Shown: positions 14,434 to 43,638 of the stretch, piece after piece
Position numbering within the stretch: the first letter of the stretch is position 1
Layout of the letters: every line of letters begins with the position of its first letter
Origin: Candidatus Pacearchaeota archaeon
GTDB lineage: Archaea > Nanobdellota > Nanobdellia > Pacearchaeales > JAPDKA01
NCBI GenBank assembly: GCA_038890875.1
Contig: JAWAFA010000001.1
Span: 258,617-322,616, forward strand
DNA length: 64,000 bases
Reading direction: 5' to 3'
The notes under the pieces: generated by a model
Seen by the model: the letters and a program-made list of their open reading frames with translations, nothing else
What the model was told of the DNA's origin: nothing
Databases searched by the model: none
Made by a program: the position numbers and the translations under genes

Positions 14434-14574
14434 GAAATTATAGGGTTTGATTTTTTAAATATTTTTGATCCAATTAAACTCAAAGTAGCGCAAAAACTTA
14501 CCTTTAGCTTATCAAATTCGCTTAAATCGACTTCTCATTTGCTCGATTAAAACTTCTAAAACTTGCAAAATTAA

Positions 14575-14595: not shown

Positions 14596-14614
14596 CACGG
14601 GCTTGTTAAGAATA

Positions 14615-15643
14615 ATGGGCGTTGACATAGGCAAAATTGTGCCAAAGCACGAGATAAGTCTTGATGATTTGAAAGGTAAGATAATAGCCATTGATGCCTA
14701 CAATTCATTGTATCAATTTTTAACTACAATAAGACAACCAGACGGTAGCTTACTGACAGATAGGCAAGGCAATATCACTAGTCATCTTAGTGGACTTTAT
14801 TATCGAACAATGAACTTACTTTACAAAAATATAAAGCCAATCTACATCTTTGATGGTAAGAGCCCTGAACAAAAATATAGCGAGAAAGAAAAACGAGAGA
14901 GAATAAAGCAAGAAGCAAGTAGAAAGTATGTAGAGGCAAAAGAAAAAGGAGAAATTGAGGAAGCGGCGAAATATGCAAAAATGACAGCAAAGCTAACGAG
15001 TGACATGGTTGAAGAAGCAAAAAAATTAATCGAGGCCATGGGGCTATGTTATGTCCAAGCGCCAAGTGAGGGAGAAGCACAAGCAGCATTCATGACCAGA
15101 AAAGATAAATCAATTTATGCTGTCGCTAGTCAAGATTATGATTCACTTATTTTTGGTGCAACGAGGCTTATACTAAATTTAACACTAGCAAAGAAACGCA
15201 AGCTGGCAAGTGGTGCTGTTGTACAGGTAAATCCTCAACTTGTTATGCTCGATGAAGTGCTTAATAATCTTCACATTGATTATGATATGCTTGTTTCTCT
15301 TGCTATACTTATAGGCACAGATTTTAATGCTGGTGTGAAAGGGATAGGTCCAATAAAAGGTTTAAAGCTAATAAGACAGTTTAAAAATCCTTATGAGCTT
15401 TTTAAATGGGTAGAAAAAAATTTTACCATAGATTTTGATTGGCAAGAAATCTTTCAAATTTTTAAAAAACCGAATGTAAAAAAAGATTTTACTTATTCCT
15501 TTGGAAAGCCAAATAAACAAAAATTAATAGAGTTGTTATGTAACAAGCATGATTTTTCAGAAGAGCGCGTTATTTCTGCTTTTGAAAAACTAGAGAAAGA
15601 AAAAGAAAAGTCTAGCCAGGAAAGCCTCGGAAAATTTCTGTAG
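14615..15643 (+). CDS. fen: Flap endonuclease 1 (FEN-1).
   Basis: N-terminus MGVDIGKIV...IAIDAYNSLYQFL (XPG-N) and the I-domain ...GTDFN... The ORF track starts at an upstream TTG; the ATG at 14615 gives the canonical MGV start. Confidence 0.9.
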   Translation: MGVDIGKIVPKHEISLDDLKGKIIAIDAYNSLYQFLTTIRQPDGSLLTDRQGNITSHLSGLYYRTMNLLYKNIKPIYIFDGKSPEQKYSEKEKRERIKQEASRKYVEAKEKGEIEEAAKYAKMTAKLTSDMVEEAKKLIEAMGLCYVQAPSEGEAQAAFMTRKDKSIYAVASQDYDSLIFGATRLILNLTLAKKRKLASGAVVQVNPQLVMLDEVLNNLHIDYDMLVSLAILIGTDFNAGVKGIGPIKGLKLIRQFKNPYELFKWVEKNFTIDFDWQEIFQIFKKPNVKKDFTYSFGKPNKQKLIELLCNKHDFSEERVISAFEKLEKEKEKSSQESLGKFL

Positions 15644-15644
15644 A

Positions 15645-16706
15645 ATGGCAATTATAATGCATATTGACATGGATGCCTTCTTTGCATCTATCGAAGAAAG
15701 AGAGCATAAATTGCATGGAGTTCCAGTAATTGTAGGTGCTCCTCCAAAAAATGGCAAAGGTAGAGGTGTTGTTAGTACAGCTAATTATGAAGCGAGAAAA
15801 TATGGCATAAAGTCTGGAATGTCGATAGCTAAGGCATGGAAACTTTGTAAACATGCTGTTTTTTTGCAACCAAGATTTGAACTTTATGAAAAAGAAAGCG
15901 AAAAAATAATGAAAATAATTAAAAATTATAGTGATGCTTTTGAACAAGTTAGTATTGATGAGGCTTTTATTGATGTAAGTAAGAGATGCAAAAATTTTGA
16001 AGAAGCAAAGGCGATGGCATATCTTATAAAAAATAAGATTTTCGAGGCTACTGGATTAACTTGTAGTGTTGGGATAGCAAATAACAAGTTGCTTGCTAAA
16101 ATTGCAAGCAGTATGAAAAAGCCAGATGGTCTGACTATAATAGAGAACAATGGAAAATTTTTAGCTAAGCTTAAACCTGATAAAATTCCTGGAATAGGGA
16201 AAAAAACAAAAGTATACTTGAGAAAACTTGGAATAAAAACAATTGGAGATATGCAAAAGAAAGACAGCTTTTGGTTTCTTGAAAATTTTGGTAAAATGGG
16301 AATTTATTATCACAATGCAGCTTTTGGTATAGACAAGAGCAAAGTTGGTGAAAAGTATGAAATAAAATCAGTAGGAAAAGAAATAACATTTGAGCATGAT
16401 ACTCTTGATAGGGAATTTATTTTTTTCAACCTTTCACAACTCTGCAAAAAGGTTTGGCAAGAACTAAAAAAAGAAAAAATTTATTTCAAGACAATAGAGT
16501 TAAAAGTTAGGTATAGTAACTTTGAAACGCACACTCATGAGCAGAGTTTCATTGTACCAATTGATAATCTAGGCATATTTAAAGAAAAAGCAAAAATGAT
16601 GCTTGCTCCATTATTAATAAGACCAATTAGACTAATTGGAATTCGTGCAAAAAATTTTATTAAAGAAAAACAATTAAAGTTACATAGCATAAATCATTTA
16701 TTCTAA
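15645..16706 (+). CDS. dinB: Y-family DNA polymerase IV (Dpo4/DinB-like).
   Basis: N-terminus IMHIDMDAFFASIEEREHKLHGVPVIVG (the DxD...FFA...E signature of Y-family polymerases). 353 aa. Confidence 0.85.
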   Translation: MAIIMHIDMDAFFASIEEREHKLHGVPVIVGAPPKNGKGRGVVSTANYEARKYGIKSGMSIAKAWKLCKHAVFLQPRFELYEKESEKIMKIIKNYSDAFEQVSIDEAFIDVSKRCKNFEEAKAMAYLIKNKIFEATGLTCSVGIANNKLLAKIASSMKKPDGLTIIENNGKFLAKLKPDKIPGIGKKTKVYLRKLGIKTIGDMQKKDSFWFLENFGKMGIYYHNAAFGIDKSKVGEKYEIKSVGKEITFEHDTLDREFIFFNLSQLCKKVWQELKKEKIYFKTIELKVRYSNFETHTHEQSFIVPIDNLGIFKEKAKMMLAPLLIRPIRLIGIRAKNFIKEKQLKLHSINHLF

Positions 16707-16707
16707 A

Positions 16708-17502
16708 ATGTATGAACAAATCGGAAACATAGCAATAATTGATATCAAAAAAGCAGAGAAATTAAATTTAAAAAGACTTAAGAATCTTGCAAAAAAAATC
16801 CTTAGTAAACATATTAAGACAGTAATTTTAAAACAAAAAAAAATTAAAGGAAGATTTCGCAAAGCAAATTATAAGTTTCTGGCAGGAGAAAAATGCTTTG
16901 AAACATTCCACAAAGAGAATGGATGTATTTTTAAATTAAATATCAAAGATGTTTATTTTTCTTCCCGATTAGCATCAAATAGGTTATGGTTAGCAAAAAA
17001 AATTTTAGATTTAACAAAAAAAAAGAAAAGAAAAAAAATAAAAATATTAGTAGGCTTTGCAGGAGTTGGAGCATATGGAATTGTTATAGCTAGAGAACTT
17101 AAGTTAGCAGGAATAGATTTTGAGATGGCAATGGTAGAGATTAATAGAAAAGCAGTAGAGTATATGAAAGAAAACATTTTGCTGAACAAGCTCAATATAA
17201 AAATAATACAAGGAGATGTAAGAGAAGTTTTTCCTAAACTAAATAAATTTGATTTTATAATTATGCCAAGACCGCAACTTGCTTATGATTTTTTTAATGA
17301 ATGTTTTATCAATGCAAAAAAAGACAGCATTGTTTTTTATTTTGATTTTTTACTTGAACAAGAAATAGAGAAAAGAAGGCAAGAGCTTGAAAGCAAGGCA
17401 AAAGTGCTAGGAAAAAAAATAAAAATTCTGGAAATAAAGAAGGCTGGAGAAATTGGGGTTAGAAAATGGCGCGTTGTTGTTGTTTTTGAAATTAGTAACT
17501 AA
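16708..17502 (+). CDS. Met-10+/Trm5/Taw2-family class I SAM-dependent tRNA methyltransferase.
   Basis: IGNIAIID N-terminal region, SAM motif VGFAGVGAYGI (DxFAGxGxF-type) and a downstream IMPRP segment (NLP-loop-like). Confidence 0.5.
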   Translation: MYEQIGNIAIIDIKKAEKLNLKRLKNLAKKILSKHIKTVILKQKKIKGRFRKANYKFLAGEKCFETFHKENGCIFKLNIKDVYFSSRLASNRLWLAKKILDLTKKKKRKKIKILVGFAGVGAYGIVIARELKLAGIDFEMAMVEINRKAVEYMKENILLNKLNIKIIQGDVREVFPKLNKFDFIIMPRPQLAYDFFNECFINAKKDSIVFYFDFLLEQEIEKRRQELESKAKVLGKKIKILEIKKAGEIGVRKWRVVVVFEISN

Positions 17503-17529
17503 TTCACGACTAATTTTAGTCTAATTTTT

Positions 17530-18645
17530 TTAGTGATAGTTAATTTTTATATCCTCTGGTTTTACCCCTTTAATTTCTATAGTTATGTTTCCGTATTTTA
17601 TTTTAAAAGTTTCATCGGTTTTGTTTTCAATTTTTGTTTCTATTTCTTTTATTTCCACTTTTTCTTGCTTAACCTCTTTTTTCCTTTCTCTTTTTTCTAA
17701 TGTTTGTTCTTTTTTCTTGTTAATCTTTTCAAGTGTTGTTTTTATTTCATCAAGTGAGGAGGCAATTTTTGAAATTTCAAATCCTTGTTTTTTAAGTCTC
17801 TCAAATTTTCTCTTGTAAATAGCTTCTACTTTTTCTTCAAGGGTAGCTTTTTCTCCAAGTTGACAATTTTTTGGTAGCAGAACTATTTGACCCTTTTTAA
17901 GGTACCCTCTTGTTATTTGTGGGTTTAATCTATTAATGAGATGATTATTACAAACTTTTCTAAGATTATATAAATCATTATTCGAGCTAGCATAATAGAT
18001 TTTAGCTTCTGAGAAGATGTCTTTGTCAGTTATTCTTTCTTCAATTTTCTTACATGAGTGAATTGTTTTTAAAATATTATTTATATAATTTCTAATAGTC
18101 TCTACTTTGTTTAACTTTCCAACTTTATCCTCTCCAGCAACATAAGCTACTAAAGCATCTTCTAGCCTCCTATATTTTTCTATCAAATCTCTTATTTCTT
18201 CAACTCCGGCAATGATGCTGAATGGCGAGAATCTCCAATCTTCATAATAGTTAATATTTAAGCCATGCCTCCTTGCAGTTGACTTCATAAGTTGCATTAC
18301 TCCAGCAGCCCATTTTGGGGAAAGTGCATAAGGATTTCCTTTTGATTCAACAAGAATCACTGCGGCAATAGTGCAAAAGTCAATCCCAAAGACATCAGCT
18401 GCAAAATCAATTATTTTTTTATATTCCTCTATATTACTTACCGCATCAATATAGCTTGAATAACAACTATTATCATTACAATAACTTTCAACTTCATTCG
18501 CTACTATTTTCACAATTTTGTTCCCACCAATGAGCCCCCCTCCCTCTAATCCATCCCCTTTAAAACTAGAAACGTTTATATTAAGCAGTGAAGAGAGTAT
18601 AAGAGTAGATAACAACTTTTTGTTATTTTTTATAATTTTTATCAT
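17530..18645 (-). CDS. Secreted lytic transglycosylase (Slt/family-1 SLT domain) with a Lys/Glu-rich coiled-coil C-terminus.
   Basis: Signal peptide. SLT motif I is VILVESKGNPYALSPKWAAGVMQLM (ES-GNP-A-S-AGA-G-MQLM). The C-terminal ~90 aa are a KE-rich coiled coil. Confidence 0.7.
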   Translation of the reverse strand: MIKIIKNNKKLLSTLILSSLLNINVSSFKGDGLEGGGLIGGNKIVKIVANEVESYCNDNSCYSSYIDAVSNIEEYKKIIDFAADVFGIDFCTIAAVILVESKGNPYALSPKWAAGVMQLMKSTARRHGLNINYYEDWRFSPFSIIAGVEEIRDLIEKYRRLEDALVAYVAGEDKVGKLNKVETIRNYINNILKTIHSCKKIEERITDKDIFSEAKIYYASSNNDLYNLRKVCNNHLINRLNPQITRGYLKKGQIVLLPKNCQLGEKATLEEKVEAIYKRKFERLKKQGFEISKIASSLDEIKTTLEKINKKKEQTLEKRERKKEVKQEKVEIKEIETKIENKTDETFKIKYGNITIEIKGVKPEDIKINYH

Positions 18646-18824: not shown

Positions 18825-19478
18825 TTATTTTTCAACTATAAACAGTTGTTTTTTCTTTAAAGCCCTTTCTATAATCTCTTTTTCCCTCTCGGTTACTATT
18901 GTATGATAAAAAATTGCATGTCCAAGGTTAACTGCCTTTCCTAAATTTTTAACATTTTTGAGGTATGCACTCGAAAGGTCTGCTCCCCAAAGGTCTGCTC
19001 CCCAAAGGTCTGCTCTCCAAAGGTATGCTCCCGAAAGGTCTGCTCCCGAAAGGCATGCTCTCCAAAGGTATGCTCCCGAAAGGTCTGCTCCCGAAAGGCA
19101 TGCTCTCCAAAGGTCTGCTCCCGAAAGGTCTGCTCCCAAAAGGTCTGCTCCCCAAAGGTTTGCTTCTTTTCCTCTAAAAAATGGTAAATAAAGATTTCTT
19201 GCCACAACACCTCGAAGCTTAGAATTATCCATGATTATAGGATCTAAATCAAGGTTAGCGTTTGTTAAATACTTTTGCAGTTCTTCAAAAGATTCATGAT
19301 CAGCAAGATTAAAACCTTCTTCTAATTCTATTCTAGAAAAATCCCTTTCTCCAGCTAAGATTTTTTTTACAAGTTCGTCTCCTTTCATTGGTATAAGTTG
19401 TGTTACCATATTAATTAAATAAAGATTAAGGTTTATAAATCTTTCGGTTCTTTGACTACTCTTAAGATACGACATCAA
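18825..19478 (-). CDS. Pentapeptide-repeat protein.
   Basis: About 17 consecutive A(D/N)L(S/W)GA pentapeptides (ANLWGADLLGADLSGADLWRACLSGADL...). Confidence 0.8.
   Translation of the reverse strand: MMSYLKSSQRTERFINLNLYLINMVTQLIPMKGDELVKKILAGERDFSRIELEEGFNLADHESFEELQKYLTNANLDLDPIIMDNSKLRGVVARNLYLPFFRGKEANLWGADLLGADLSGADLWRACLSGADLSGAYLWRACLSGADLSGAYLWRADLWGADLWGADLSSAYLKNVKNLGKAVNLGHAIFYHTIVTEREKEIIERALKKKQLFIVEK
18966..19170. repeat. Tandem ~15-bp direct repeat (aaaggtctgctcccc-type, ~13 copies) that encodes the pentapeptide repeats.
   Basis: Visible nucleotide periodicity of 15 bp with minor variants (ggtctgctcccc / ggcatgctctcc / ggtatgctcccg). It produces open frames in five of six frames, which are the ORF-track artefacts at 18941-19210. 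Confidence 0.8.
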
Positions 19479-25781: not shown

Positions 25782-26507
25782 TTATAGTAATTTCCAGATT
25801 AATTCAAATATTTTTTTTTGAGTTTGCGCAATATCTTTATTTTTTATTATAACTCCAATTAATTTTTCTTTGTTCATTGTTAGAAACGCTACGTTTTCAT
25901 TATAAATATAAGTCATTGTGTTTATTTTTATTTCTTTTGGAAGAAATTTGGTTTTAGTATAGGTTTTATTTCTTAATTTAAGTTCTTTATTAATTTTGTC
26001 CGTTTTTTCTTGTATTATTCTACAAAATATTTTTTCTTTTATTCTCTTTTCACTCCAGTGAGGAAAATAAAATTCCAAGGTTTTAAATATTTCATCACAT
26101 TCTATTACTAGAATTTCTTCGGGCTTTATTTTTAATATATTTTCTAATATTGTTTTTATTCCTTCAACTCCTTCATAAATTTCTATTTCTGGTTTTTCTT
26201 CTACTGTCTTTTTTATTTGCTCTAATTTTGGAATTATAGATTTAATAGTATTTAATTTTTCTTCTTCTATTTTTAAAACTCTTTTTGGATCAACTGCCTC
26301 AAAATATCTAGTTCCTGATTTGATAGTATAAAAAACAAGTCCTTTTTTTAATAAAGAATTCAAAATACTATAAATTGTTGTCCTAGGAAGATTTAATCTT
26401 TTTGATATTTCATTAACTTTAGAATTACCTAATTTTAATAATTCTATATAGATCTCTGCTTCTTTATCATTTAGTCCTATTTTTTTTAAAGCATATTTTT
26501 CTTCCAT
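25782..26507 (-). CDS. TrmB-family transcriptional regulator, paralogous to the one at 19830-20609.
   Basis: HTH IGLNDKEAEIYIELLKLGNSKVNEISKRLNLPRTTIYSILNSLLKKGLV. Divergently oriented to the three-gene unknown cluster. Confidence 0.65.
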   Translation of the reverse strand: MEEKYALKKIGLNDKEAEIYIELLKLGNSKVNEISKRLNLPRTTIYSILNSLLKKGLVFYTIKSGTRYFEAVDPKRVLKIEEEKLNTIKSIIPKLEQIKKTVEEKPEIEIYEGVEGIKTILENILKIKPEEILVIECDEIFKTLEFYFPHWSEKRIKEKIFCRIIQEKTDKINKELKLRNKTYTKTKFLPKEIKINTMTYIYNENVAFLTMNKEKLIGVIIKNKDIAQTQKKIFELIWKLL

Positions 26508-26756
26508 TTTATTATAATTTTTTCTTTTTTATAAATCTTTTTTATAGTCCATTTTTGACAACAAAAATATAAATAATACAACTACTAAGGAGAGAGTATA
26601 AGAGATTAAAGAAAATGACAAAGGAAAAATATGAAAAAGAAAAAAGATATGTAGAAAGTTATGAAGATTTAGCAAAATATCCTTCATTGTCAGAAGGAAA
26701 GAATGAATTAGAAATCATGTTCAACAAAATAAATCGAACACGACGCGATGAAGTAA

Positions 26757-27650
26757 ATGGAGGGGGTGGAGAAAATGGAATTTGAAAAAATAATTTTGCA
26801 AAAACCAAAAAGAGAAAATTTACCTGAAATGCCAGAGTTAGTTAAACAATATTGTGATTTAAAAAGTTATAAGCCTGCTGGAAAGGTTTTTAGCATAGAA
26901 ATTAAACATAAGAGTAGGGATTCAAAAACAGACGGCATGGCTTATTTCAATGAGCTAGTAGTGAATAAAGAAAATAAAGTAGTCTATAGTAGTGGAATGA
27001 TGAAATATAGAGGAGCTTATAACTGGGAAATTGATAATCACGACACCCAGTTGTTTGATCCTTCAATTTTAGAAGAAAAAAGTAATGAAGTAGTATTTGG
27101 ATTAAGAACTGGTGCAGGAAACATAAAAATATACAGATTAAAGGGAAATGAACTAAAAGAACTTTACACCTTTGACATCGATGGTTATAGGAAAAAGAAG
27201 AAAAGAAATGAATTAATTAAAAAGATTCTTGAAGATCCAGATGAATGGGTGAAGTACATTGAAAATGAGCAAGGGCATCATTGGTATATTGATTCTTCGA
27301 GAATGCGTGATTTGAAAAATGAAAAAGAAAAGGGAAATGAATGGAGGGACGATTACCAAATTCTTGATGACGGAAATTTGATTATAGCACTAGCGAAACA
27401 TTACGATAGAGACTATGATCCTATCGTAGATTGTTATTATGTGTACTTTTGGAAAAAAAGGGTTGGTATGGCAAAATCAAAAACTTACTATACAGGACTT
27501 TGCCACCCTTGGGGAAAATTTTATATAATTGAGGTTAGATTTTTAGAACCAGCATCTTATGATAAAGATAAACAGATAGTTATAGCAAAAATAGGAAATA
27601 AGGGGCAAAACAAAGTAATAGAACACAAATTTAAGTTAGAAGAAAAATAA
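26757..27650 (+). CDS. Hypothetical cytoplasmic protein (cluster gene 1). The true start is probably the ATG at 26775, after a GGAGGGGGTGG SD.
   Basis: 297 aa with no signal peptide or TM and no recognisable motif. Shares a conserved upstream leader with the next gene. Confidence 0.45.
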   Translation: MEGVEKMEFEKIILQKPKRENLPEMPELVKQYCDLKSYKPAGKVFSIEIKHKSRDSKTDGMAYFNELVVNKENKVVYSSGMMKYRGAYNWEIDNHDTQLFDPSILEEKSNEVVFGLRTGAGNIKIYRLKGNELKELYTFDIDGYRKKKKRNELIKKILEDPDEWVKYIENEQGHHWYIDSSRMRDLKNEKEKGNEWRDDYQILDDGNLIIALAKHYDRDYDPIVDCYYVYFWKKRVGMAKSKTYYTGLCHPWGKFYIIEVRFLEPASYDKDKQIVIAKIGNKGQNKVIEHKFKLEEK

Positions 27651-27736
27651 GGAGTTAGAAAATTGAAAGAAGTATAATAACAAAAACAAAAGCCAATCGA
27701 GCACGACGCGATGAAGTAAATGGAGAGGTGAAGAAA

Positions 27737-28519
27737 ATGAAAAATTTCGAAAAGTATGTGGAAGAAGCGAAAGAAGGGAAGAAAATGATAATATATGTGT
27801 CTGACTCGTGTTATTCTGATATCCGTATTCCTCTTGAATATTATAAGTCTAAACTAGAAAGAATGATTTCACTTGATCAGTATACTGAAGATATTGCTAG
27901 TTTTCTATTGCTAATAGATAATGAAAGGACTTTGAGAGGTATTGTACAAGACTATTTATGCGAGTTTGGAAAAGATGAGTTTGGCTTAGTAGAAGCACTA
28001 AAGAAGTTAGTTCCAGAAAAAGATGAAAAATCATCTAAAGTTCTTTTGTATCATGGTCTTTGCAGTGAGTTTAGAAAAGGATTAAAAAAAGAAGAACTAA
28101 AAAAACTTGGAATAGAATATGCCGTAGATTTTCATCATTATCCAGACAATCCATTTGCATACGAATTAGAAGAAACTATAAAAAGTTTGGATTCGAAAAA
28201 ATATGATAACTTAATGAAAGTGATAAATGACACAAAGAAAAGAGAAGAAGAAATTTTGAAACAAGTAAATGAAAAGATTCCTATAAAGTATACAAGTGAT
28301 TTTATTAAAGTAGGAGAGTTTCTAAAAGAGTTAGATTTATCAAAGCAACATTTTTGTTTAAATTATATCATAGGAAAAATCACTGATACAGATTATATGA
28401 GAGGATTCATTTATCTTGGTGCTGGAGAATTAGATGCAGCTAAAAAAATGGCAGACATGACAAACTCTGCCTTTAATAAAGAATGGTTATTAAAAGAAAT
28501 CGAAAAACGAAAAAAGTGA
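27737..28519 (+). CDS. Hypothetical cytoplasmic protein (cluster gene 2).
   Basis: The ORF track uses the GTG at 27728. The ATG at 27737 lies 8 nt after a GGAGAGGTGA SD. No recognisable domain. Confidence 0.45.
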   Translation: MKNFEKYVEEAKEGKKMIIYVSDSCYSDIRIPLEYYKSKLERMISLDQYTEDIASFLLLIDNERTLRGIVQDYLCEFGKDEFGLVEALKKLVPEKDEKSSKVLLYHGLCSEFRKGLKKEELKKLGIEYAVDFHHYPDNPFAYELEETIKSLDSKKYDNLMKVINDTKKREEEILKQVNEKIPIKYTSDFIKVGEFLKELDLSKQHFCLNYIIGKITDTDYMRGFIYLGAGELDAAKKMADMTNSAFNKEWLLKEIEKRKK

Positions 28520-28540
28520 ACGAATGGGTGGTTGAAGAAA

Positions 28541-29209
28541 ATGACAAAACCACTGGAAATATTGGTTGTGGAAGATGGTGTTGAAAATTTAGAAAATTGT
28601 AAAAAAGCATATGAACCACTGATGAAAGAGGGGCTCATTATACCTTATTACGCCACTAATTACAAAGAAGCAGAGCCTTTAATTGATAAAGTGAATGCAG
28701 GAATTTTAGATCTTTATTTTCCAGCAGAAAATGGGGAAGAGATGATCAAAGAATTTGCTAGAAAATACGATAGAGGTAGTGGGTTTCCTAAAGAAGTAAA
28801 AGCTAATGATATGTATCCTATGGGCCTAATCATTGCTGATAAACTTGCTGAACAAGGAAAACCATCAATATTTGTAAGTCCAATTGCTAGTGGCCATGGA
28901 TCACATAACAATCCATTTTATCCATTGAGATATGCTATAGATAGTGAAAAAATACCTAAAGAAATAAAAATAGCATGGTCTGCTTGTGAGAATCCATACA
29001 GTTTTGAGGAATATGGCAGTCCTACATTTGTATCTTATATGTTAAGAGTAGATTCACAATGGTTTAGAGATTACATAGAAAAGATACCAGAAGTATGGCT
29101 TGCTTCTGTTAAAGCAATAGCCGCACTCTTAAAAAGAGAAGATATTTACAATAAAATAAAAGTTGATAAACTTGTAGAAAAAAATATAGAGGAATTTTAT
29201 AAAAAATAG
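28541..29209 (+). CDS. Hypothetical protein whose N-terminus looks like a response-regulator receiver domain (cluster gene 3).
   Basis: LEILVVEDGVENLENCKKAYEPLMKEGLII...AGILDLYFPAENGEEMIKEF was aligned by eye to the REC pattern (acidic pair, a phosphoacceptor-position Asp in ILDL, then a ...P..G.E helix). The C-terminal ~130 aa are unknown. The ORF track uses the TTG at 28532. Confidence 0.4.
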   Translation: MTKPLEILVVEDGVENLENCKKAYEPLMKEGLIIPYYATNYKEAEPLIDKVNAGILDLYFPAENGEEMIKEFARKYDRGSGFPKEVKANDMYPMGLIIADKLAEQGKPSIFVSPIASGHGSHNNPFYPLRYAIDSEKIPKEIKIAWSACENPYSFEEYGSPTFVSYMLRVDSQWFRDYIEKIPEVWLASVKAIAALLKREDIYNKIKVDKLVEKNIEEFYKK

Positions 29210-29511
29210 TAACTTATGGAGATAGAAAGAATCAAATATTTTGATAGCCGTCGGCCAATTTTTATAAAAATAAAAGTTTATTAGATAAATCAAAATTTTT
29301 GAATAATAAGAAAGTATTTTTTAAAAGTTTATTTAAAGATTTAAAAAAAAGATAAGCAAAAAAGCCAGGTAGTTGGATTTTTAGATAAATTTTATTTAAA
29401 AGATCAGTTAGATAGCCACATTTTTGACAGAAAAAAATATTAAAGTTTCAATAAGAATATACAAAAATATAAAAATTAATGAAATAAAAGCTTCGATAGT
29501 TGAGCTACTAA

Positions 29512-29823
29512 ATGACATCTTCCGACATGTTCAAAATTTATAATCAAAAAGATGAATGGCTGTGTGGTTTTCTTGTAGGAAAAAATATAATGCATGTTTA
29601 TTTATATCCAAAAAGAAATTGGAAGAGTAATTTTAAAAGTAATTTACTTTACGAATTTGGCACTGTATACAACCTTATTTTCGAACATTTAATTGCTGAA
29701 GGTTTAGCAGAAAGTATGGAAAAAAATTATTCTTTTCATAAAGCTCTATTCTTCGGAAATAGAATATCCTTTATGGAGTGGATACACACAGTAGAGGACA
29801 TATTAAAAGGGAAGAAAAAATAA
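29512..29823 (+). CDS. Hypothetical small protein inside an otherwise non-coding ~820-bp AT-rich gap.
   Basis: 103-aa ORF with no motif. Coding status is uncertain. Confidence 0.25.
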   Translation: MTSSDMFKIYNQKDEWLCGFLVGKNIMHVYLYPKRNWKSNFKSNLLYEFGTVYNLIFEHLIAEGLAESMEKNYSFHKALFFGNRISFMEWIHTVEDILKGKKK

Positions 29824-30033: not shown

Positions 30034-31344
30034 ATGCCAGACATATGGATTGGAAGAAGTGAAGAGGATAGAAAAAAATTTGGCGATAAGGGCTTGATTT
30101 ATATTGGAAAACTTTGGGTTAGGATGGAACATCTTGTCAATTTAAGTAATCTCGTCTTACTTGATCTTGCAAGAAGTCATATAATAATGGTTTGTGGAAA
30201 AAGAGGTAGTGGAAAGTCATATACGCTTGGAGTTATTGCTGAAGGTATAACAGATATGCCTGAAGAAGTAAAAAGTAACATAGCTCCTCTTATCTTTGAT
30301 ACAATGGGTATTTACTGGAGTATGGCCTATAGAAATGATAAAGAAATAGAACTTTTGCGAGAGTGGCAGCTTAAGCCAAAAGTATTACCTGTCAGAATAT
30401 TTGTACCATATGCTTATTACGACGAATTTGTAAAGCGTGGCATAGGCAAAATCTTACCATTCGCTTTAAAGGTTTCTGATGTTAGCCATGAGGACTGGCT
30501 TATAACTTTTGATTTGGGTTTCACTGATCCAGTAGGAATAGTTATCCAAAAAGCGATAATAAAGTTACGCGAGAAGAAGACTGACTATGACATTGATGAT
30601 ATAATCACTCTAATCAAAGCTGATGAAGAAAGTGAGAAGCAGCATAAGCTAGCTGCTATAAATATATTTGAAGCTGCTAAAGCTTGGGGAATTTTTGCAA
30701 CTAAAGAACAAAAAGCAACAACGTCGAGAGAATTACTAGAGGCAGGTGTAACAACTGTGCTTGATTTGAGTATGTACAGTAGTGTAGGGGCTTATAATGT
30801 TAGAGCTCTTGTTATTGGTCTTCTATGTAAAAAAATTTTCAATGAGCGCATGCTTGCAAGAAAACTTGAAGAAGTAGAAGCAGTAAGAAGAGGGCTTGAG
30901 TATCTTTATTTCAAAGAAAAACGAGAATTGCCACTTGTTTGGATTTTTATCGATGAGATGCATGAATTTTTGCCACGAGAAGGAAAAACAGCAGCAAGCG
31001 ATGCATTAATCCAATTGCTGCGAGAAGGGAGGCAGCCAGGCATAAGTCTTGTGTTTGCTACTCAACAACCAGGAAAACTTCATACAGATGCTATAACTCA
31101 AGCCGACATTATAATTAGCCATAGACTTACAGCAAAGCCTGATTTAGATGCATTAAGTGAAATAATGCAAAGTTACCTTGCCGAAGATATAATTGCTTAC
31201 ATGAATAATCTTCCTCGTTATAGAGGCTCCGCTCTTGTTCTTGATGATAATAGTGAGAGAATATATAGCATCCGTGTTAGACCACGCTTCACTTGGCATG
31301 GTGGAGAAGCACCAACTGCAGTAAAAGTTGAAAAACGAGAATAA
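30034..31344 (+). CDS. HerA/FtsK-superfamily P-loop ATPase (DUF87-like).
   Basis: Walker A VCGKRGSGKSYTLG. Walker B VWIFIDEMHEF. A HerA/VirB4-type ...LVFATQQPGKL...ADIIISHRLT segment. No TM. Confidence 0.65.
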   Translation: MPDIWIGRSEEDRKKFGDKGLIYIGKLWVRMEHLVNLSNLVLLDLARSHIIMVCGKRGSGKSYTLGVIAEGITDMPEEVKSNIAPLIFDTMGIYWSMAYRNDKEIELLREWQLKPKVLPVRIFVPYAYYDEFVKRGIGKILPFALKVSDVSHEDWLITFDLGFTDPVGIVIQKAIIKLREKKTDYDIDDIITLIKADEESEKQHKLAAINIFEAAKAWGIFATKEQKATTSRELLEAGVTTVLDLSMYSSVGAYNVRALVIGLLCKKIFNERMLARKLEEVEAVRRGLEYLYFKEKRELPLVWIFIDEMHEFLPREGKTAASDALIQLLREGRQPGISLVFATQQPGKLHTDAITQADIIISHRLTAKPDLDALSEIMQSYLAEDIIAYMNNLPRYRGSALVLDDNSERIYSIRVRPRFTWHGGEAPTAVKVEKRE

Positions 31345-31442
31345 CTAATCTTATTTGTTCTGAAAGCAAAAAAGTGCAATTTTTTAAAAACATAATATTT
31401 TTAAATCTAAAAATATTAACTTAATAGTAGTAAAGTTTAAAA

Positions 31443-32411
31443 ATGAAAAACCATCTTAAAAAAATAATCAATTTTTTGCTTGCCTCAAGTATTTTTTTTA
31501 CTTATACTGCCGCAGCCGTACCTAAATCAGTTGAGTCGATCAAACCTATCCCAAAAGAAATTAAGGACATCTCTATGTATCAGGAATGGCTTGATCGATA
31601 TGAATTGAATAATTATAATTATTCAAGTGAAAATTTTTATTCTTGTTTTCAGAGAATGGAAAAATATAGGAATATAATAGAAAAAGCAGCAAAAGAGTCA
31701 AGATTGCCTGTTTGCGAGTTAGAAGCTTTAATAGCGATTGAATCTTGCGGTTTGTTAAAAGCACATTCAAAAGCTGGAGCAAGTGGACCAGCACAATTAA
31801 TGTATGGAAAAGCTAAAGAATTTGGAATAAAAATAACTAGTACTGAAGATTGGAGATATAGTGTAGATTCGATTTTTCCAGCGGCTAAATATTTCGCAAA
31901 GGTGAAAAAAAATTATGGATTGGAGAATGCACTAATAGCTTATAATGCTGGTGAGAGTAAAGCTAACAACATTAATCATCTTGAAGAGTGGGAAGATAAG
32001 AGGGATTATATACCATATGAAACACAAAAGTATGTTCCAAGATTTATGAATGCGGCTGTCCAATGCCTTGAATATGAAGAAGAGAGAAAAAATCATGTAA
32101 AAATAGCTCAAAAAGGAGATACATTATGGAAAATAGCTAAAGAATGTAAAAGTAATGTAGAAAAAATAAAAAAAATTAATGGAATTTCCGGTAAAAAGAT
32201 ATTCTCTGGGCAAAAAATAGTGTGCAGTGAAGATTATTTTGACATATTTGCTAAAGCAACCTTTTATACTGTTAAAACAAATGATACTATGGCAAAGATA
32301 GCTAGAAAATATGGAATTTCACCAGAGCTGTTAAAATATCTAAATCCACAGATAAAAAAATTTTCCAACTTAACTCCAGGAATGAAAATAAGAATAATAA
32401 AAAGTGAATAA
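31443..32411 (+). CDS. Secreted lytic transglycosylase (SLT domain) with two C-terminal LysM domains.
   Basis: Signal peptide. SLT motif IAIESCGLLKAHSKAGASGPAQLM with a downstream AYNAG. LysM 1 is VKIAQKGDTLWKIAKECKSNVEKIKKINGI. LysM 2 is YTVKTNDTMAKIARKYGISPELLKYLNP. Confidence 0.75.
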   Translation: MKNHLKKIINFLLASSIFFTYTAAAVPKSVESIKPIPKEIKDISMYQEWLDRYELNNYNYSSENFYSCFQRMEKYRNIIEKAAKESRLPVCELEALIAIESCGLLKAHSKAGASGPAQLMYGKAKEFGIKITSTEDWRYSVDSIFPAAKYFAKVKKNYGLENALIAYNAGESKANNINHLEEWEDKRDYIPYETQKYVPRFMNAAVQCLEYEEERKNHVKIAQKGDTLWKIAKECKSNVEKIKKINGISGKKIFSGQKIVCSEDYFDIFAKATFYTVKTNDTMAKIARKYGISPELLKYLNPQIKKFSNLTPGMKIRIIKSE

Positions 32412-32461: not shown

Positions 32462-33880
32462 ATGCAAAAAAAATTAATTATTTTTCTTATTGCTTTAGCA
32501 ATTATTGCAATAGTAATTGCTTCAATTATTAAATTTTCCTCGCCTAATGTAATAAGTGAATCAAGCGGAAAAAGAATCAAAGTTGGATATATTATTTACG
32601 TCAATAATTCAGTTTATGAAAGTTCAGAATTAAGTTTTGAGGATAGTTTTTCCAAACAGCTTGGCCTGGTTGGTAATAAAGCTGATAGTTACTTTGATAA
32701 TGTCAAAGTTAGTGATGAGTTTAACATAAGCCTTAAAGCTGAGGAAGCTTATGGTAATTATAATGAGAGCTTGCGAAAGATTGTTAATCGAACAATGAGT
32801 GATAAAAGAATTATTGAATTGAACTTAGGAGGAGAAATCACTCAGGATCAATTTTATCAAGTTTTTAATCAACTACCAATCGTAAACCAAACATATTCAT
32901 CTACTCTCTTACCTTTCAAGATAAAAGTTACTAGAGTTGATAATAACAATGTTAACTTTGTCTTTGATGTTAAGATCAATGATCAAACAGCAAAAGATCA
33001 AAATGGATTTTGGTTAAAAGTAGTTAAGGTAGATGAAAAAAATAATTTAATGCAACTTAAACTTGAAGGTGAGCCAAAAAAAATTGCAACTGAAAAAGGT
33101 CTTATTGATATTTGGTTTGATGAAGAAAATATCTATTATAAACTTACACCGAAAATAGGAGATAGCATTGAATGGCATAATGAGTATGGTAAAGTTGCAA
33201 GTTACAATGAAACTCATATTATTTTCGATAACAACCATCCTCTTGCTGGCAAGGATATAGTAATAACTATCAGAGTACTTGATGTTTCGAGTGAAATTAT
33301 TAAAGCTTCATGTAAGGCAAATTCCGGTCCAACATTTGATGTTTTTATTATGAGCTATTGCCCATTCGGTATACAATTTGTTAAAGGCTTGCTTCCTGTT
33401 TGGAAAGCGCTTGAAAATGATGCCAATATCAATGTTAGATTTGTAAGTTATACGATGCATGGTCAAAAAGAAGCTAATGAAAATGCAAGAATGGTTTGTA
33501 TAAGGGAGGAACAATGCGAAAGCTATCGCGCATATCTTGAGTGTTTTGTGCAAAGTGGCGATTCTGAAAGTTGTATAAATAAACTTAATATAGATAAAAC
33601 CAAACTTGATGAGTGTATGGCAAAAAAAGCACAGAGTTATCTTGAATATGATGCCCAGCTTAATGAAAAGTATGGCGTGAAAGGAAGTCCGACGGTGGTG
33701 CTCAATGGAAAACAGATTGAAGTTTGGCCAAGAAGCCCAGCCAATATAGCAAGAATACTTTGTGAATCATTCACTTCAGAACCAAGTGCATGCTCACAGC
33801 GCTTTAGTGATGAAAATCCTGGCCCTGGCTTTGGCACTTCATCAACTTCATCAAACTTAGGGAGTTGTGGGGCAGCTTAA
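32462..33880 (+). CDS. Membrane-anchored extracellular protein with a C-terminal DsbA/thioredoxin-like domain (atypical CPFG active site).
   Basis: N-terminal TM. FDVFIMSYCPFGIQF (CxxC position reads C-P-F-G). A cis-Pro region GSPTVVLNGKQI typical of DsbA-like folds. Additional paired cysteines near the C-terminus. Confidence 0.45.
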   Translation: MQKKLIIFLIALAIIAIVIASIIKFSSPNVISESSGKRIKVGYIIYVNNSVYESSELSFEDSFSKQLGLVGNKADSYFDNVKVSDEFNISLKAEEAYGNYNESLRKIVNRTMSDKRIIELNLGGEITQDQFYQVFNQLPIVNQTYSSTLLPFKIKVTRVDNNNVNFVFDVKINDQTAKDQNGFWLKVVKVDEKNNLMQLKLEGEPKKIATEKGLIDIWFDEENIYYKLTPKIGDSIEWHNEYGKVASYNETHIIFDNNHPLAGKDIVITIRVLDVSSEIIKASCKANSGPTFDVFIMSYCPFGIQFVKGLLPVWKALENDANINVRFVSYTMHGQKEANENARMVCIREEQCESYRAYLECFVQSGDSESCINKLNIDKTKLDECMAKKAQSYLEYDAQLNEKYGVKGSPTVVLNGKQIEVWPRSPANIARILCESFTSEPSACSQRFSDENPGPGFGTSSTSSNLGSCGAA

Positions 33881-35119: not shown

Positions 35120-35360
35120 AAGGAAGGTGTAAGCAGGTATAAGCCTCCTTTTGTCGCTCGATATTGAGCGTTCAGCATTCTACTAAGCGGCTCAGAGCGA
35201 GCCTTGCACGCTTAGGCTGGCCGTTTCATCCACAAGCAAGCTCGTGGTCTCGTTTCTGTGCCAGAGCCGTGCCTTTCGACACGTGCTTTTCAGCACTAAG
35301 CGTTTTATGTGGGAGGACTTTCCTCTCGTAAAACGAGACAGCTGAGCCCTGCTTACATAA
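35120..35360 (-). ncRNA. rnpB: Probable RNase P RNA, minimal/compact form (~235 nt).
   Basis: A GC-rich island in the AT-rich intergenic region. The minus-strand transcript has a 9-bp terminal P1 stem (GUAAGCAGG / CCUGCUUAC). Just downstream of P1 is GAGAGGAAAGUCCUCC (CR-I, the P4 5' strand). Near the 3' end is ACAAAAGGAGGCUUAU (the ACAGAA-CCGGCUUAU-like CR-V, P4 3' strand). There is an internal GGCACAGAAAC. Confidence 0.55.
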
Positions 35361-38179: not shown

Positions 38180-38506
38180 ATGAAAAATAAAAAGGCGATT
38201 TCATTCCTTTTTCAGATAATCATAGAAATCTTAATAATAACTATTGTTTTTGCTTTATTAGCTTTTTTTGTTGTTTCTTCCCAAGGACTTGATACAAAAA
38301 AAGTAGCATTATCAGAGCTTAGCTTTTTTGTTTCAATGTTTGACGACGTCGAAGTTAATATAAATTCAAGTGAATTTAATGTTAGCGAGCTTAGCTATGA
38401 AACCAACTCTTTTGTTCTATCAATTTCTCCGATTATAAAATATAGAAGCCCTGTCTATGTAAAGAAAGAGATAGATTTAATTGATGGCAATCTAAGAATA
38501 AAATGA
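38180..38506 (+). CDS. Pilin-like protein with a class III signal peptide.
   Basis: N-terminus MKNKKA/ISFLFQIIIEILIITIVFALLAFFVV. First gene of a four-gene overlapping operon. Confidence 0.45.
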   Translation: MKNKKAISFLFQIIIEILIITIVFALLAFFVVSSQGLDTKKVALSELSFFVSMFDDVEVNINSSEFNVSELSYETNSFVLSISPIIKYRSPVYVKKEIDLIDGNLRIK

Positions 38507-38901
38507 AAGAAAAAAAAGCACAACTTCTTGGAAGCGAATACTTGTTATGGATTTATAGATTCTTTTTAATCTCTCTTGTTGCTTTAGGTACCGTTATCAT
38601 AGTTGCTAAATATAATAGCATTGAGCTTGATAAAAAACCTCTAATAGCAAGCCAGCTGCTCAATGCAGTTCTTGAATGTAAAGAAGAAAATAAATTAAAC
38701 TGTATTTTTTATAATCAAATTTATGATATTTATGTTTCTTACGATAAAAAAGAAATTGGTAAAAAAGATTTAATTATTTTGTGCGAGGCTAAAGAATCTG
38801 GAGTTGAAATACCAAATATAGATTTATTCTGTAAGAACTATAAAATAATTGTTGCTAATAAAATAAAAAATTTAAAGATAGCAATAGCAAGTGAAAAATG
38901 A
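38503..38901 (+). CDS. Pilin-like protein with a class III signal peptide.
   Basis: N-terminus MKEKKAQ/LLGSEYLLWIYRFFLISLVALGTVII. ATGA overlap with both neighbours. Confidence 0.45.
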   Translation: MKEKKAQLLGSEYLLWIYRFFLISLVALGTVIIVAKYNSIELDKKPLIASQLLNAVLECKEENKLNCIFYNQIYDIYVSYDKKEIGKKDLIILCEAKESGVEIPNIDLFCKNYKIIVANKIKNLKIAIASEK

Positions 38902-39383
38902 AAACAGCAAAAAAAGCCAAAAGAGCACAAACAAGCGTCTTTGGTTTAATTTTAGCAACTTTTATTCTTATCTTTTTAATAATCATTTACCTTCTTTTTT
39001 CAGTATTCTATAAAGGAATAAATGAGAAAAAAAATTTAAAAATAACTGAACAGCTTGATGAAAAAATTTTATCTTACTATTTACTTGATGCAATGTTCAC
39101 TGAACTAGATGCAAGCACAATGCAAAAAATTTATGATCAGAGTAAGATGAAATATAATTTGTCTAACTTTGCCGAGCTATTTTATGCATACTATTCATCT
39201 AAAGATGATGAAAAGCTTATAGAAAATATAATTAATAAAAAGCTTGATGAGTTGGAACTTTCTGATTATACTTTACAATTTGAAATTATTAAAATCGATA
39301 AAATTGATAAGAGAGAAGGAGCAAGAGTTTTTCTTCCTTTTTCAAATTCAAGCGTAATCGAAATTAATCTAATAAAAAAATAA
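38898..39383 (+). CDS. Pilin-like protein with a class III signal peptide.
   Basis: N-terminus MKTAKKAKRAQ/TSVFGLILATFILIFLIIIYLLF. Confidence 0.5.
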   Translation: MKTAKKAKRAQTSVFGLILATFILIFLIIIYLLFSVFYKGINEKKNLKITEQLDEKILSYYLLDAMFTELDASTMQKIYDQSKMKYNLSNFAELFYAYYSSKDDEKLIENIINKKLDELELSDYTLQFEIIKIDKIDKREGARVFLPFSNSSVIEINLIKK

Positions 39384-39390
39384 ACTTAAA

Positions 39391-40134
39391 ATGAAAAGCA
39401 AAAACAAGGAAGGAGGCAAAAGAGGATTTGCACTTTTTCCTTGGTTAATTATAATAGTTGCCCTGGTAATATTTAATATTGCTTCTTTTATTCTTCTTGA
39501 AAAAACAAAGGAAAAGATAAAAAGTATAGAAAATCTTGATGAAGTTATTGATTACTCTTGGTTTATCAAAAATTATGAGAGATTTTTAAATTTATCTTAT
39601 GAACTAGCTTATGCTCAAGCTTTGAACGATCTTTCTCATATGCCCAGTTTTGATTGTGAAATTATCCAAATTAGTGGCGAAACTTTTTTTTCTCTTGAGA
39701 AGTGTAAGTTAGATCAAGATTTATTTCTCAACAATTTTAAACAGAGATTTAATGAGCACATTAATTCATTTTCTACTCTTACCAATGCTAAAAGTGAATG
39801 TAATTTTGATAATAATAAGGTAGATTGTCAATTAACTTTTAATAAAACATTTGAGCTAAATTTTTTAAATCTGACAACAAAAAAAGTTGTTAAATTTGAA
39901 AGAGCGATTGATCTTAGCTATATAAACAACCTAGAAGAAGCGAGAAAAGAAGTTCTTGAAAAAATAAAAGCAATAAAAATAGCCGAAACAGAGCAATCTA
40001 TACCTAAAAAATATTCCATTAAAATTGAATTAATTTCAGGAAGGCAGAAGATTACATTTTTAACAAAAAAATTTTTCTTGGTTGAAAATGACAAAGTTTT
40101 ATATAAGGAAATTCCTTTAATTTTTATTTATTAA
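39391..40134 (+). CDS. Pilin-like protein with a class III signal peptide (largest subunit, possibly a tip or minor pilin).
   Basis: N-terminus MKSKNKEGGKRG/FALFPWLIIIVALVIFNIASFILL. This is a textbook [KR]-G-[F]-hydrophobic prepilin-peptidase site. Confidence 0.55.
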   Translation: MKSKNKEGGKRGFALFPWLIIIVALVIFNIASFILLEKTKEKIKSIENLDEVIDYSWFIKNYERFLNLSYELAYAQALNDLSHMPSFDCEIIQISGETFFSLEKCKLDQDLFLNNFKQRFNEHINSFSTLTNAKSECNFDNNKVDCQLTFNKTFELNFLNLTTKKVVKFERAIDLSYINNLEEARKEVLEKIKAIKIAETEQSIPKKYSIKIELISGRQKITFLTKKFFLVENDKVLYKEIPLIFIY

Positions 40135-42612: not shown

Positions 42613-43638
42613 TCATTTATGCCTCTTTTTCTTTCTATTTTTGGTTTTTTTATATCTGCAATAGCCTTTTTTTCCCTCATTTTTTACTAGCATCATTGCT
42701 TCATCGGCATGTTTTAAGAGCTCTAGCATAGAATTGGCATCATAGCCATAGGTCGCACAACCTACACTAACTCCTATTTTGCCTCTGAACTCTCGCACTT
42801 CTTTCGCAAATTCAATTGTTGCATAATTACTGACCTCTTTGACAATTCTTCGTGCAATTTTATCAACTTCTTTTGGAGAAGCTTCTGGGATGATAATTAC
42901 AAACTCATCCCCTCTGTAACGCCTTCCTAAAGTATCTATAGAACGACAATATTTTCTTAAACCTTCAGCAATTAACTTTAATGCTAGATCGCCTCTTAGA
43001 TGATTATAGTTATCATTTATAGCTTTAAAATTATCAACATCTATGAAAAGAAGTGAGACATATTTTTTCTTTTTGCTTCTTTTTGCTCGCTCTACTTCTT
43101 TTTTTAATTGTTCGATTATATATCTTTCATTAAACAAGCCTGTTAATGAGTCAATCATCACCTCACGCTTCAATGATTCGATTTCTTTTGTTTGTCTTGC
43201 TCCAAGAAGATGTACTAATTTCTCAATTCTTTTCATTTCTTTTAGTACTTCATAGGCTTCTACCCTACTTTTCTTAAAAAAATAAAACTTTAATTTTGAT
43301 ATCCCATCAGTAATTTTTGGAGCAACATAACTTAACATTATATCTGCAAATTGGTTTTTCCTTGCCCTTTCTTCTTCATGATTATTTGAATCTATTTCTG
43401 ACATTAGGGTATACTGCCTTTTCATTATTGTTCTAAGATTGCCTATAAGCTCTCTAAGCATTATTCTAGCATTTATATAATCTTCATAAGTAAATTTTTT
43501 AGAGTAGTGTGCATACTGCATATTCAAACTATCACTCTCTTCTTGGATGCCCTTTAATTCCTTCAAAAATCTTTCTACATAAATTCTTACTTTTTTGTCT
43601 GCACTTTTTAACATCTCTTCAAAAACCTTATTTTTCAT
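42613..43638 (-). CDS. GGDEF-domain protein (diguanylate-cyclase fold) with a degenerate active-site motif and an N-terminal coiled-coil region.
   Basis: DSLTGLFNERYI..., FIDVDNFKAINDNYNHLRGDLAL, and RYRGDEFVII where RYGGEEF is expected (the first Gly is replaced by Arg). No TM. Confidence 0.65.
   Translation of the reverse strand: MKNKVFEEMLKSADKKVRIYVERFLKELKGIQEESDSLNMQYAHYSKKFTYEDYINARIMLRELIGNLRTIMKRQYTLMSEIDSNNHEEERARKNQFADIMLSYVAPKITDGISKLKFYFFKKSRVEAYEVLKEMKRIEKLVHLLGARQTKEIESLKREVMIDSLTGLFNERYIIEQLKKEVERAKRSKKKKYVSLLFIDVDNFKAINDNYNHLRGDLALKLIAEGLRKYCRSIDTLGRRYRGDEFVIIIPEASPKEVDKIARRIVKEVSNYATIEFAKEVREFRGKIGVSVGCATYGYDANSMLELLKHADEAMMLVKNEGKKGYCRYKKTKNRKKKRHK

Follow-up and report, generated by a model that had tools for sequence, protein, structure and literature searches.

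A compact MltD-like lytic transglycosylase encoded next to a HerA-fold ATPase in a Pacearchaeota genome

We analysed a stretch of 64,000 nucleotides (hereinafter the window) from contig JAWAFA010000001.1 of a Candidatus Pacearchaeota archaeon and, within it, the open reading frame (ORF) at 31443–32411 of the forward strand, which starts with ATG and encodes a protein of 322 amino acids. From its Pfam matches, predicted structure and identity to the NCBI entry 'MAG: lytic transglycosylase [Candidatus Pacearchaeota archaeon]' (MAG, metagenome-assembled genome), it is annotated here as the gene of an MltD-like lytic transglycosylase with one SLT domain and two LysM repeats. It is preceded on the same strand by the gene of a soluble HerA-fold P-loop ATPase of 436 amino acids (30034–31344), from which an AT-rich spacer (31345–31442) separates it, and is followed after 50 bp by the gene of a membrane-anchored DsbA/thioredoxin-like protein of 472 amino acids (32462–33880, forward strand), assigned from sub-threshold matches. 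The original prediction for this locus had described a secreted murein hydrolase about 100 bp downstream of a cytoplasmic HerA/VirB4-superfamily ATPase, and the measured spacer is 98 bp; it had further read the two genes as one imported wall-breaching module, and this second part fared differently, as set out below.

The Pfam domain search bore out the proposed architecture. The SLT domain (PF01464), which constitutes the catalytic domain of glycoside hydrolase family 23 (GH23), family 1, covers residues 78–189 (31674–32009, forward strand) with an E-value of 1.1e-13 and 51.2 bits against a cut-off of 21.3; the match spans positions 2–116 of the 117 in the profile, and the assignment also draws on invariant columns and structural matches. 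LysM (PF01476) is found in two stretches (E 2.4e-23, 82.3 bits against a cut-off of 20.9). Repeat 1, at residues ∼219–262 (32097–32228, forward strand), has the beta-alpha-alpha-beta arrangement, is shared with the closest relative, P0316 (see below), and is additional relative to most members of the archaeal clade. Repeat 2, at residues ∼273–318 (32259–32396, forward strand), terminates in the LNPQI motif typical of that clade. Residues 97–120, IAIESCGLLKAHSKAGASGPAQLM, contain the catalytic pair E100-S101, encoded by 31740–31745, and the GxxQ motif ('GLMQ'-type, here GPAQLM) with G115 and Q118; the AYNAG motif occupies residues 166–170. In alignments with bacterial MltD-like proteins, E100, S101, G115, Q118, A166, G170 and Y197 are invariant, and Y167 and N168 are invariant or nearly so. 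Judging from these alignments, the signature of the family-1 lytic transglycosylases is intact, and a peptidoglycan-binding and -cleaving architecture of bacterial type is indeed present in a DPANN genome.

In the AlphaFold2 (AF2) model of the protein, with a mean predicted local distance difference test score (pLDDT) of 83.6, a helix at the N terminus and a disordered linker precede a helical core of lysozyme-like type, and two LysM modules of beta-alpha-alpha-beta form follow. The solved structure that the model matches best is that of Pseudomonas aeruginosa MltD with two LysM domains (8rhf; E 2e-11, 318 aligned columns), after which come Slt, MltE, MltF and MltC; the catalytic domain superposes on Slt at ∼3.1–3.4 Å over ∼150 columns. 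A sequence search of the PDB with the catalytic part led to another MltD entry, 8rhe. The protein scores 55.9 bits with the MltD equivalog model of NCBIfam (NF008050), whose cut-off is 508, and the best-matching stretch is the LysM region, residues 216–318. It is therefore MltD-like by architecture and no ortholog of MltD.

Hydropathy scans of the whole protein showed a Lys-rich start, then a hydrophobic segment at residues 8–26 that ends in AAA before V, and no second transmembrane-like segment. AF2 places a helix at residues 2–17 and gives linker residues 21–40 pLDDT values below 50. The N-terminal segment (31443–31520, forward strand) is marked here as a putative Sec signal peptide or membrane anchor. 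There is no lipobox after the hydrophobic segment, the first Cys of the protein being residue 68. With its single N-terminal hydrophobic segment, the protein is probably exported, by means of either a Sec signal peptide or an N-terminal anchor, in keeping with the proposed secretion.

A one-residue insertion specific to the clade carries C91. Six of eight clade members have this residue together with C208, two have other residues at both positions, and the bacterial MltD-like proteins aligned lack both Cys. Their co-variation points to a probable C91–C208 disulfide, which would fit an exported protein. The neighbouring DsbA-like protein, which in relatives has ∼470–500 amino acids and is the divergent upstream neighbour of the ATPase, is a possible oxidative-folding helper for exported Cys-containing proteins.

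Relatives of the enzyme are few. Apart from the protein itself, a word-indexed search returned nothing closer than 32% identity, and when the archaeal SLT alignment served as the profile for such a search, its matches were limited to P0001, P0241 (the SLT type of the related locus L001) and P0242 (the second SLT protein of the window, SLT2), even P0002 being missed. An exhaustive HMMER scan of 1.84 billion representatives gave seven matches below 1e-30, of which the sole full-length relative was P0316, a protein of 375 amino acids that is 45% identical, contains SLT and two LysM domains, is named by NCBI as a Pacearchaeota protein and emerged only from this exhaustive search. The genomic contexts of further clade members are archaeal: the P0002 gene adjoins a PolB gene whose product is 76% identical to PolB of the window, the P0328 gene adjoins a Rad51/RadB-type gene and genes of aminoacyl-tRNA synthetases, and the P0369/P0462 genes lie near that of ribosomal protein L15e.

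The window itself encodes a paralog, SLT2 (17530–18645, reverse strand; 371 amino acids), with an SLT domain (E 1e-19), one degenerate LysM that is below the Pfam threshold and ends in the same LNPQI motif, and a C-terminal tail rich in Lys and Glu. In L001, the SLT gene close to that of the ATPase is orthologous to it (49% identity). The clade has thus undergone duplication, with two paralogs in the genome of the window and, in a close relative, another two alongside an M23 peptidase, and this lineage carries a small arsenal of wall hydrolases. SLT-LysM genes were also seen beside DNA-replication genes, namely those of PolB (L007, 542–1390) and the PolD large subunit (L011, 10001–11128), and both in the window (11977–18645) and in L001 an SLT gene stands beside a PolB-FEN1-DinB-TYW2 block; this proximity is probably a coincidence of conserved gene order.

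In a bootstrapped neighbour-joining tree of 34 SLT domains, the archaeal proteins together with P0440 separated from all sampled bacterial MltD-like proteins in 100 of 100 bootstraps, a result to be read in light of the limited bacterial sample and possible long-branch effects; the enzyme of the window paired with P0316 in 98 of 100. Its gene has a GC content of 0.304, a third-position GC content (GC3) of 0.207 and a codon usage that are those of the surrounding housekeeping genes. Recent horizontal import and contamination of the MAG were rejected on account of this agreement, of the presence of the same protein in NCBI on a contig of up to 486 kb and of its clustering with archaeal proteins. 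The archaeal origin of the window as a whole (∼31% GC) is confirmed by genes of PolB, FEN1, a Y-family polymerase, RadA, histidyl-tRNA synthetase (HisRS), the proteasome alpha subunit, SBDS, exosome subunits and enolase, by an archaeal RNase P RNA (35129–35356, 145 bits) and by the organism to which NCBI assigns the identical protein. The gene ultimately derives from the bacterial MltD type, and is now a resident of a small group of DPANN archaea in which it has diversified; its host-like codon usage, its membership of an archaeal clade and its paralog argue against recent import. The description of the locus as an imported module was in this respect misleading.

The ATPase carries a Walker A motif (GKRGSGKS, residue 55) and a Walker B-like one (VWIFIDE, residue 302), and no transmembrane segment was seen in a hydropathy scan. 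In Pfam only DUF87 ('HerA central') is above threshold (E 2e-7), and matches to FtsK, TrwB, Zot and HerA_C are all sub-threshold; no VirB4/CagE/TrbE family was matched in Pfam or NCBIfam, and the score with the NCBIfam HerA equivalog is 37 bits against a cut-off of 970. The structural model (pLDDT 76; predicted TM-score, pTM, 0.82) has as its top Foldseek matches HerA of Thermococcus kodakarensis (HerA-NurA), Deinococcus radiodurans and Sulfolobus solfataricus and the anti-phage HerA, with E-values of 2e-16 to 1e-11 and TMq of ∼0.6. The best 50 structural matches are all HerA-type (HerA, DndH-C and TdpA), and VirB4, VirD4 and A32 are absent from these 50. Thus, the assignment of a soluble, cytoplasmic ATPase to the HerA/FtsK superfamily stands, whereas its VirB4 part does not, the fold being HerA and neither VirB4/TrbE nor A32-like.

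The ATPase has more than 6000 relatives, mostly from Pacearchaeota and other DPANN bins; those listed are 56–88% identical, 120 of them by at least 60% over the full length, and at least 568 stretches in the collection of species-representative genomes encode one. It is a conserved core gene of Pacearchaeota and Woesearchaeota, cytoplasmic and of housekeeping type. Genes of NurA, SIR2, DUF4297 or other effectors were not found beside it in the annotated neighbourhoods of the window and the related loci L001, L003, L005, L008, L009 and L010, nor was NurA, Mre11 or Rad50 found anywhere in the window region or those six neighbourhoods. A literature search found no title or abstract concerning this conserved HerA-like ATPase of DPANN archaea. 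One archaeal contig, L015, encodes a 746-residue ATPase of the T2SSE/type-IV-pilus type (4728–6968, forward strand) one gene away from a small gene with SLT and two LysM domains; this is a single case and the ATPase is of a different class from that of the window.

Comparison of gene neighbourhoods showed that the pairing of ATPase and SLT genes is not conserved. In five of the six other annotated ATPase neighbourhoods there is no SLT gene near the ATPase, whether the latter is 86% (L003), 70% (L005), 63% (L008) or 62% (L009 and L010) identical to that of the window. In L001, whose ATPase is 88% identical, the ATPase gene is followed by an M23 peptidase gene on the opposite strand and then by the SLT2-type paralog. 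The Peptidase_M23 protein (L001, 9338–10144, reverse strand; 268 amino acids) has no counterpart in the part of the window region examined; this type has also been reported for Nanoarchaeia (Strock et al., 2025; PMC12352652). A wider survey covered 80 species-level ATPase loci totalling 770 kb, 62 of them with at least 1.5 kb downstream of the ATPase, and used tblastn with 37 SLT queries plus a profile hidden Markov model that recovered all seven positive controls; an SLT domain within 6 kb of the ATPase was found by these searches in none of the 80 loci. The recurrent neighbours of the ATPase are a convergent TYW2/Trm5 methyltransferase gene (56/80 loci) and an upstream, divergent gene of the DsbA-like membrane protein (30/80 loci, L016–L095; also in L005, L008 and L010). 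The gene of P0316, the nearest SLT-LysM ortholog, lies on another contig than the ATPase in the genome of L001 (GCA_038846035.1), between those of the PolD large subunit and TctA, a region that is not within the window; the SLT genes of other relatives sit, as described above, beside genes of PolB, aminoacyl-tRNA synthetases or a ribosomal protein.

Gene order offers an explanation of the adjacency. Compared with L001, L003 and L005, the window has the o235-PAP2-ATPase segment in inverted orientation and additional genes at three sites. The SLT-LysM gene falls at the boundary where the ATPase gene, by its 3' end, faces the DsbA-like gene; the adjacency is therefore incidental, a product of lineage-specific inversion and insertions. 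Repeats at the inversion breakpoints amounted to low-complexity AT-rich matches, with nothing convincing among them. The spacer contains a T6 run (31379–31384) and a TATA-like TTTTTAAAT ∼36–44 bp ahead of the ATG of the SLT-LysM gene, which would be compatible with separate transcription, a weak indication in so AT-rich a genome. Scanning for bacterial-type promoters and terminators gave counts equal to those in shuffled sequence, the scan being of bacterial type and the host archaeal.

The original prediction had likened the gene pair to VirB4/VirB1 or to phage packaging and lysis, that is, to a wall-breaching apparatus for secretion, DNA uptake or host attack. What speaks for such an apparatus is that both genes lie on the same strand 98 bp apart, that the ATPase is a member of the FtsK/HerA superfamily whose P-loop region weakly matches TrwB, Zot and terminase profiles, and that in L001 an SLT gene and an M23 peptidase gene are found one to two genes from the ATPase. 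Against this stand the absence of SLT genes from all 80 surveyed loci of an ATPase that is so widespread, the separate contigs of the nearest ortholog and the ATPase within one genome, the origin of the adjacency by inversion, the HerA-type structural matches and the T run and TATA-like box in the spacer. Nor does the gene neighbourhood resemble that of a secretion system or phage: it consists of PAP2, TrmB, four soluble ORFs without matches, the DsbA-like protein, HisRS and the RNase P RNA, and membrane-channel, pilus, phage-structural and defence genes are absent from it. In PHROGs the match between the ATPase and a terminase family is confined to the generic P-loop, those between the SLT-LysM protein and families of endolysins and lytic tail proteins are confined to generic SLT and LysM portions, and eight neighbouring proteins have no matches; PADLOC likewise reported nothing for the neighbours. 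A prophage or defence island was rejected on these empty results, and the host-like composition of the gene also speaks against a phage cassette. We rejected the two-gene module because of the synteny and the HerA fold, and regard an apparatus built of both genes as very improbable; the outcome that the original prediction had itself named as contrary to it, a housekeeping HerA lacking synteny with the SLT gene, is largely what we observed.

With the architecture and fold, the catalytic motifs, the place in the clade and the absence of synteny with the ATPase established, we consider it likely that the gene encodes a stand-alone, exported, MltD-like lytic transglycosylase of a DPANN clade, which is aimed at the bacterial wall and acts independently of the ATPase. 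The protein would leave the cell via Sec and be secreted or anchored at its N terminus, and its two LysM repeats would hold it on glycan strands containing N-acetylglucosamine (GlcNAc). Glu100, as the single acid/base catalyst, would then bring about the intramolecular cleavage of the bond between N-acetylmuramic acid (MurNAc) and GlcNAc (MurNAc-beta-1,4-GlcNAc) of peptidoglycan; as for other family-1 lytic transglycosylases, the predicted product is a 1,6-anhydroMurNAc end, formed without hydrolysis. We know of no Pacearchaeota that make murein, and the likely substrate is for this reason the wall of neighbouring or host bacteria, whose sacculus would be the target. The outcome might be local thinning or opening of the wall at a contact site, the killing of competitors or the release of muropeptides as nutrients. 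Bacterial peptidoglycan thus appears the most likely target, chitin or pseudomurein being less likely, and no wall-synthesis genes were seen within the 64-kb window.

Several points weigh against this assignment. LysM domains are also able to bind chitin, and some GH23 enzymes act on it; the tree carries the reservations given with it; and peptidoglycan-hydrolase genes do recur in the ATPase region in a small clade, in different order and orientation, the SLT paralog and the M23 peptidase of L001 being only one to two genes from the ATPase.

A nutritional role, in which the enzyme would degrade free peptidoglycan debris, chitin or other GlcNAc polymers so that amino sugars and amino acids could be scavenged, differs from the assignment above in purpose only, as the chemistry is the same. 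Pacearchaeota have been characterised as scavengers of limited metabolism, for which the peptidoglycan of dead bacteria has been proposed as a source of amino acids (PMC11537232; PMC8204110), and a large secreted subtilase encoded in the window (52026–55046) fits extracellular digestion. However, genes for uptake or catabolism of muropeptides or amino sugars were not seen in the 64-kb window, and it is the peptidoglycan-specific MltD that the protein matches best in structure and in catalytic motifs. Scavenging as the purpose seems to us unlikely.

Still less can be said for the remodelling of an archaeal wall polymer such as pseudomurein, whether the organism's own or that of a host. DPANN archaea are best known as episymbionts of other archaea (PMC8204110), and there is a report, cited as reference 32 in PMC12352652, of pseudomurein binding by an engineered LysM-type domain. 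Yet only two of the surveyed archaeal peptidoglycan-hydrolase homologs came from pseudomurein-making classes (PMC12352652). The window, as noted, has no visible wall-synthesis genes. The substrate of family-1 lytic transglycosylases must contain a beta-1,4 bond and MurNAc whose C6-OH is free, and pseudomurein has beta-1,3-linked N-acetyltalosaminuronic acid. We consider an archaeal wall very improbable as the target.

A more specific version of the attack on bacterial walls can be put forward tentatively, as a possibility that we hold to be less than even: the compact SLT-LysM proteins would form a Pacearchaeota/DPANN-specific clade, marked by the co-varying Cys91/Cys208 pair and diversified by duplication, that serves as a contact-site tool for breaching bacterial host walls. 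In that case, those Pacearchaeota that are parasites of bacteria, and not of archaea, could be recognised by their members of the clade. A weaker addition to this possibility is that the adjacent DsbA-like membrane protein would fold these exported enzymes oxidatively.

The enzyme kind is not new to this lineage, contrary to the suggestion that nothing of the sort had been described: murein or lytic transglycosylases have been published for Pacearchaeota and Woesearchaeota (PMC8204110, PMC9723730, PMC11537232, PMC12352652). According to PMC8204110, Rinke (2013) and Castelle (2015) had already noted their domains in both groups. Castelle et al. (2021; PMC8204110) described fam00969, widespread, large extracellular SLT-domain proteins of up to ∼3000 amino acids, and Vigneron et al. 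(2022; PMC9723730) tied the GH23 enzymes of Woesearchaeota to a 'vampiristic' lifestyle. Modular peptidoglycan hydrolases were found in ∼5% of archaeal genomes by Strock et al. (2025; PMC12352652), who reported a patchy distribution, prominence and diversity in Nanoarchaeota and more than one hydrolase in 12% of the carrying genomes; those tested kill bacteria (PMC12352652). Interaction with bacteria is favoured in two of these studies (PMC8204110, PMC9723730), and another has put forward that Pacearchaeota scavenge wall debris (PMC11537232).

The chief hint in genomes that some DPANN archaea may live on bacteria and not on other archaea comes from enzymes that cleave murein. To these the gene described here contributes a compact and well-preserved case of MltD-like type, accompanied by a paralog; it reveals no new apparatus. 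What is modestly new is the compact MltD-like clade with its Cys pair, rare in databases, the presence of two of its paralogs in this genome and the demonstration that the link to the ATPase is false; the recognition that the adjacency arose by rearrangement prevents the false annotation of an 'archaeal VirB4/VirB1-like system'.

Other features of the window deserve brief mention. The block 25782–29823, between the PAP2 and ATPase genes, contains a TrmB-family regulator gene on the reverse strand and four soluble ORFs of 297, 263, 225 and 103 amino acids that have no Pfam, PHROG or PADLOC match, and it is absent at that position in L001, L003 and L005. A GC-rich element of 31 nt, AATCGA(A/G)CACGACGCGATGAAGTAAATGGAG, has exactly two copies, both within this block (26732–26762 and 27695–27725, forward strand; none expected from shuffled sequences). 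Each copy ends at a start codon, those of the consecutive ORFs 26757–27650 and 27728–28519, whose proteins are dissimilar to each other, and a weaker third copy of the 3' part precedes ORF 28532–29209; the element may be a shared leader or regulatory element. A block beside SLT2 that has no tblastn match in the related loci includes the gene (18825–19478, reverse strand) of a pentapeptide-repeat protein of 217 amino acids, built from 13 copies in register of 15-nt tandem repeats.

Four consecutive small ORFs at 38180–40134 (forward strand; 108, 132, 161 and 247 amino acids), which overlap or abut, each encode a start rich in Lys and Arg, then one long hydrophobic segment, and have no Pfam match; they are reminiscent of type IV pilin-like proteins with class III signal peptides. 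Adjoining the RadA gene, 42613–43638 (reverse strand) encodes a protein with a GGDEF diguanylate-cyclase domain (E 1.5e-36), and cyclic di-GMP signalling is to our knowledge unusual in archaea. The subtilase mentioned above (S8 family, forward strand; 1006 amino acids) has Ig-like domains and is probably a further extracellular degradative enzyme.

Among known systems, MltD (family 1D, GH23; PDB 8rhe, 8rhf and 8rhi) is the nearest to the enzyme. Both have an N-terminal export signal (a putative one in the archaeal protein), an SLT domain and C-terminal LysM repeats in the same order, both contain the E-S, GxxQ and AYNAG catalytic motifs, and the nearest bacterial homologs carry the MltD annotation. 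The identity, however, is only ∼20–30%, and the archaeal protein has 322 amino acids instead of the ∼450–560 of bacterial MltD, lacking the long bacterial N-terminal region and being 130–240 residues shorter than the bacterial proteins aligned with it. E. coli MltD is a lipoprotein; the archaeal protein has no lipobox Cys, and its clade has instead the insertion bearing C91, paired with C208. Moreover, its carrier is an archaeon presumably without murein of its own, so that its role cannot be maintenance of the sacculus.

The resemblance to VirB1 and VirB4 of type IV secretion systems consists in the proximity of a gene for an SLT enzyme to that of a P-loop ATPase from the broader FtsK/HerA/VirB4 group. 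Unlike that pair, the ATPase of the window has the HerA fold, the genes of VirB6, VirB8, VirB9, VirB10 and the coupling protein are absent, and the adjacency is unconserved; the VirB1 proteins known to us are without LysM repeats. With the HerA systems (HerA-NurA, SIR2-HerA and DUF4297-HerA) the ATPase shares its fold, Walker A and B motifs and DUF87, but it has 436 amino acids against ∼500–700 in HerA, and its conserved neighbours are TYW2 and the DsbA-like membrane protein.

The closest fit is with the peptidoglycan hydrolases already known from DPANN and other archaea, with which the enzyme shares its lineage, the SLT/GH23 domain, the combination of cleaving and binding parts, a patchy distribution and the presence of more than one hydrolase per genome. 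Strock et al. (2025; PMC12352652) define such proteins as those, encoded by archaeal genomes, that combine one or more peptidoglycan-cleaving domains with one or more cell-wall-binding domains, and the protein of the window, with SLT and LysM domains in an archaeal context, is one of them. Thus, the gene fits the published picture in every respect, and differs from the very large proteins of Castelle et al. in being a compact, MltD-like protein of 322 amino acids that belongs to a small clade.

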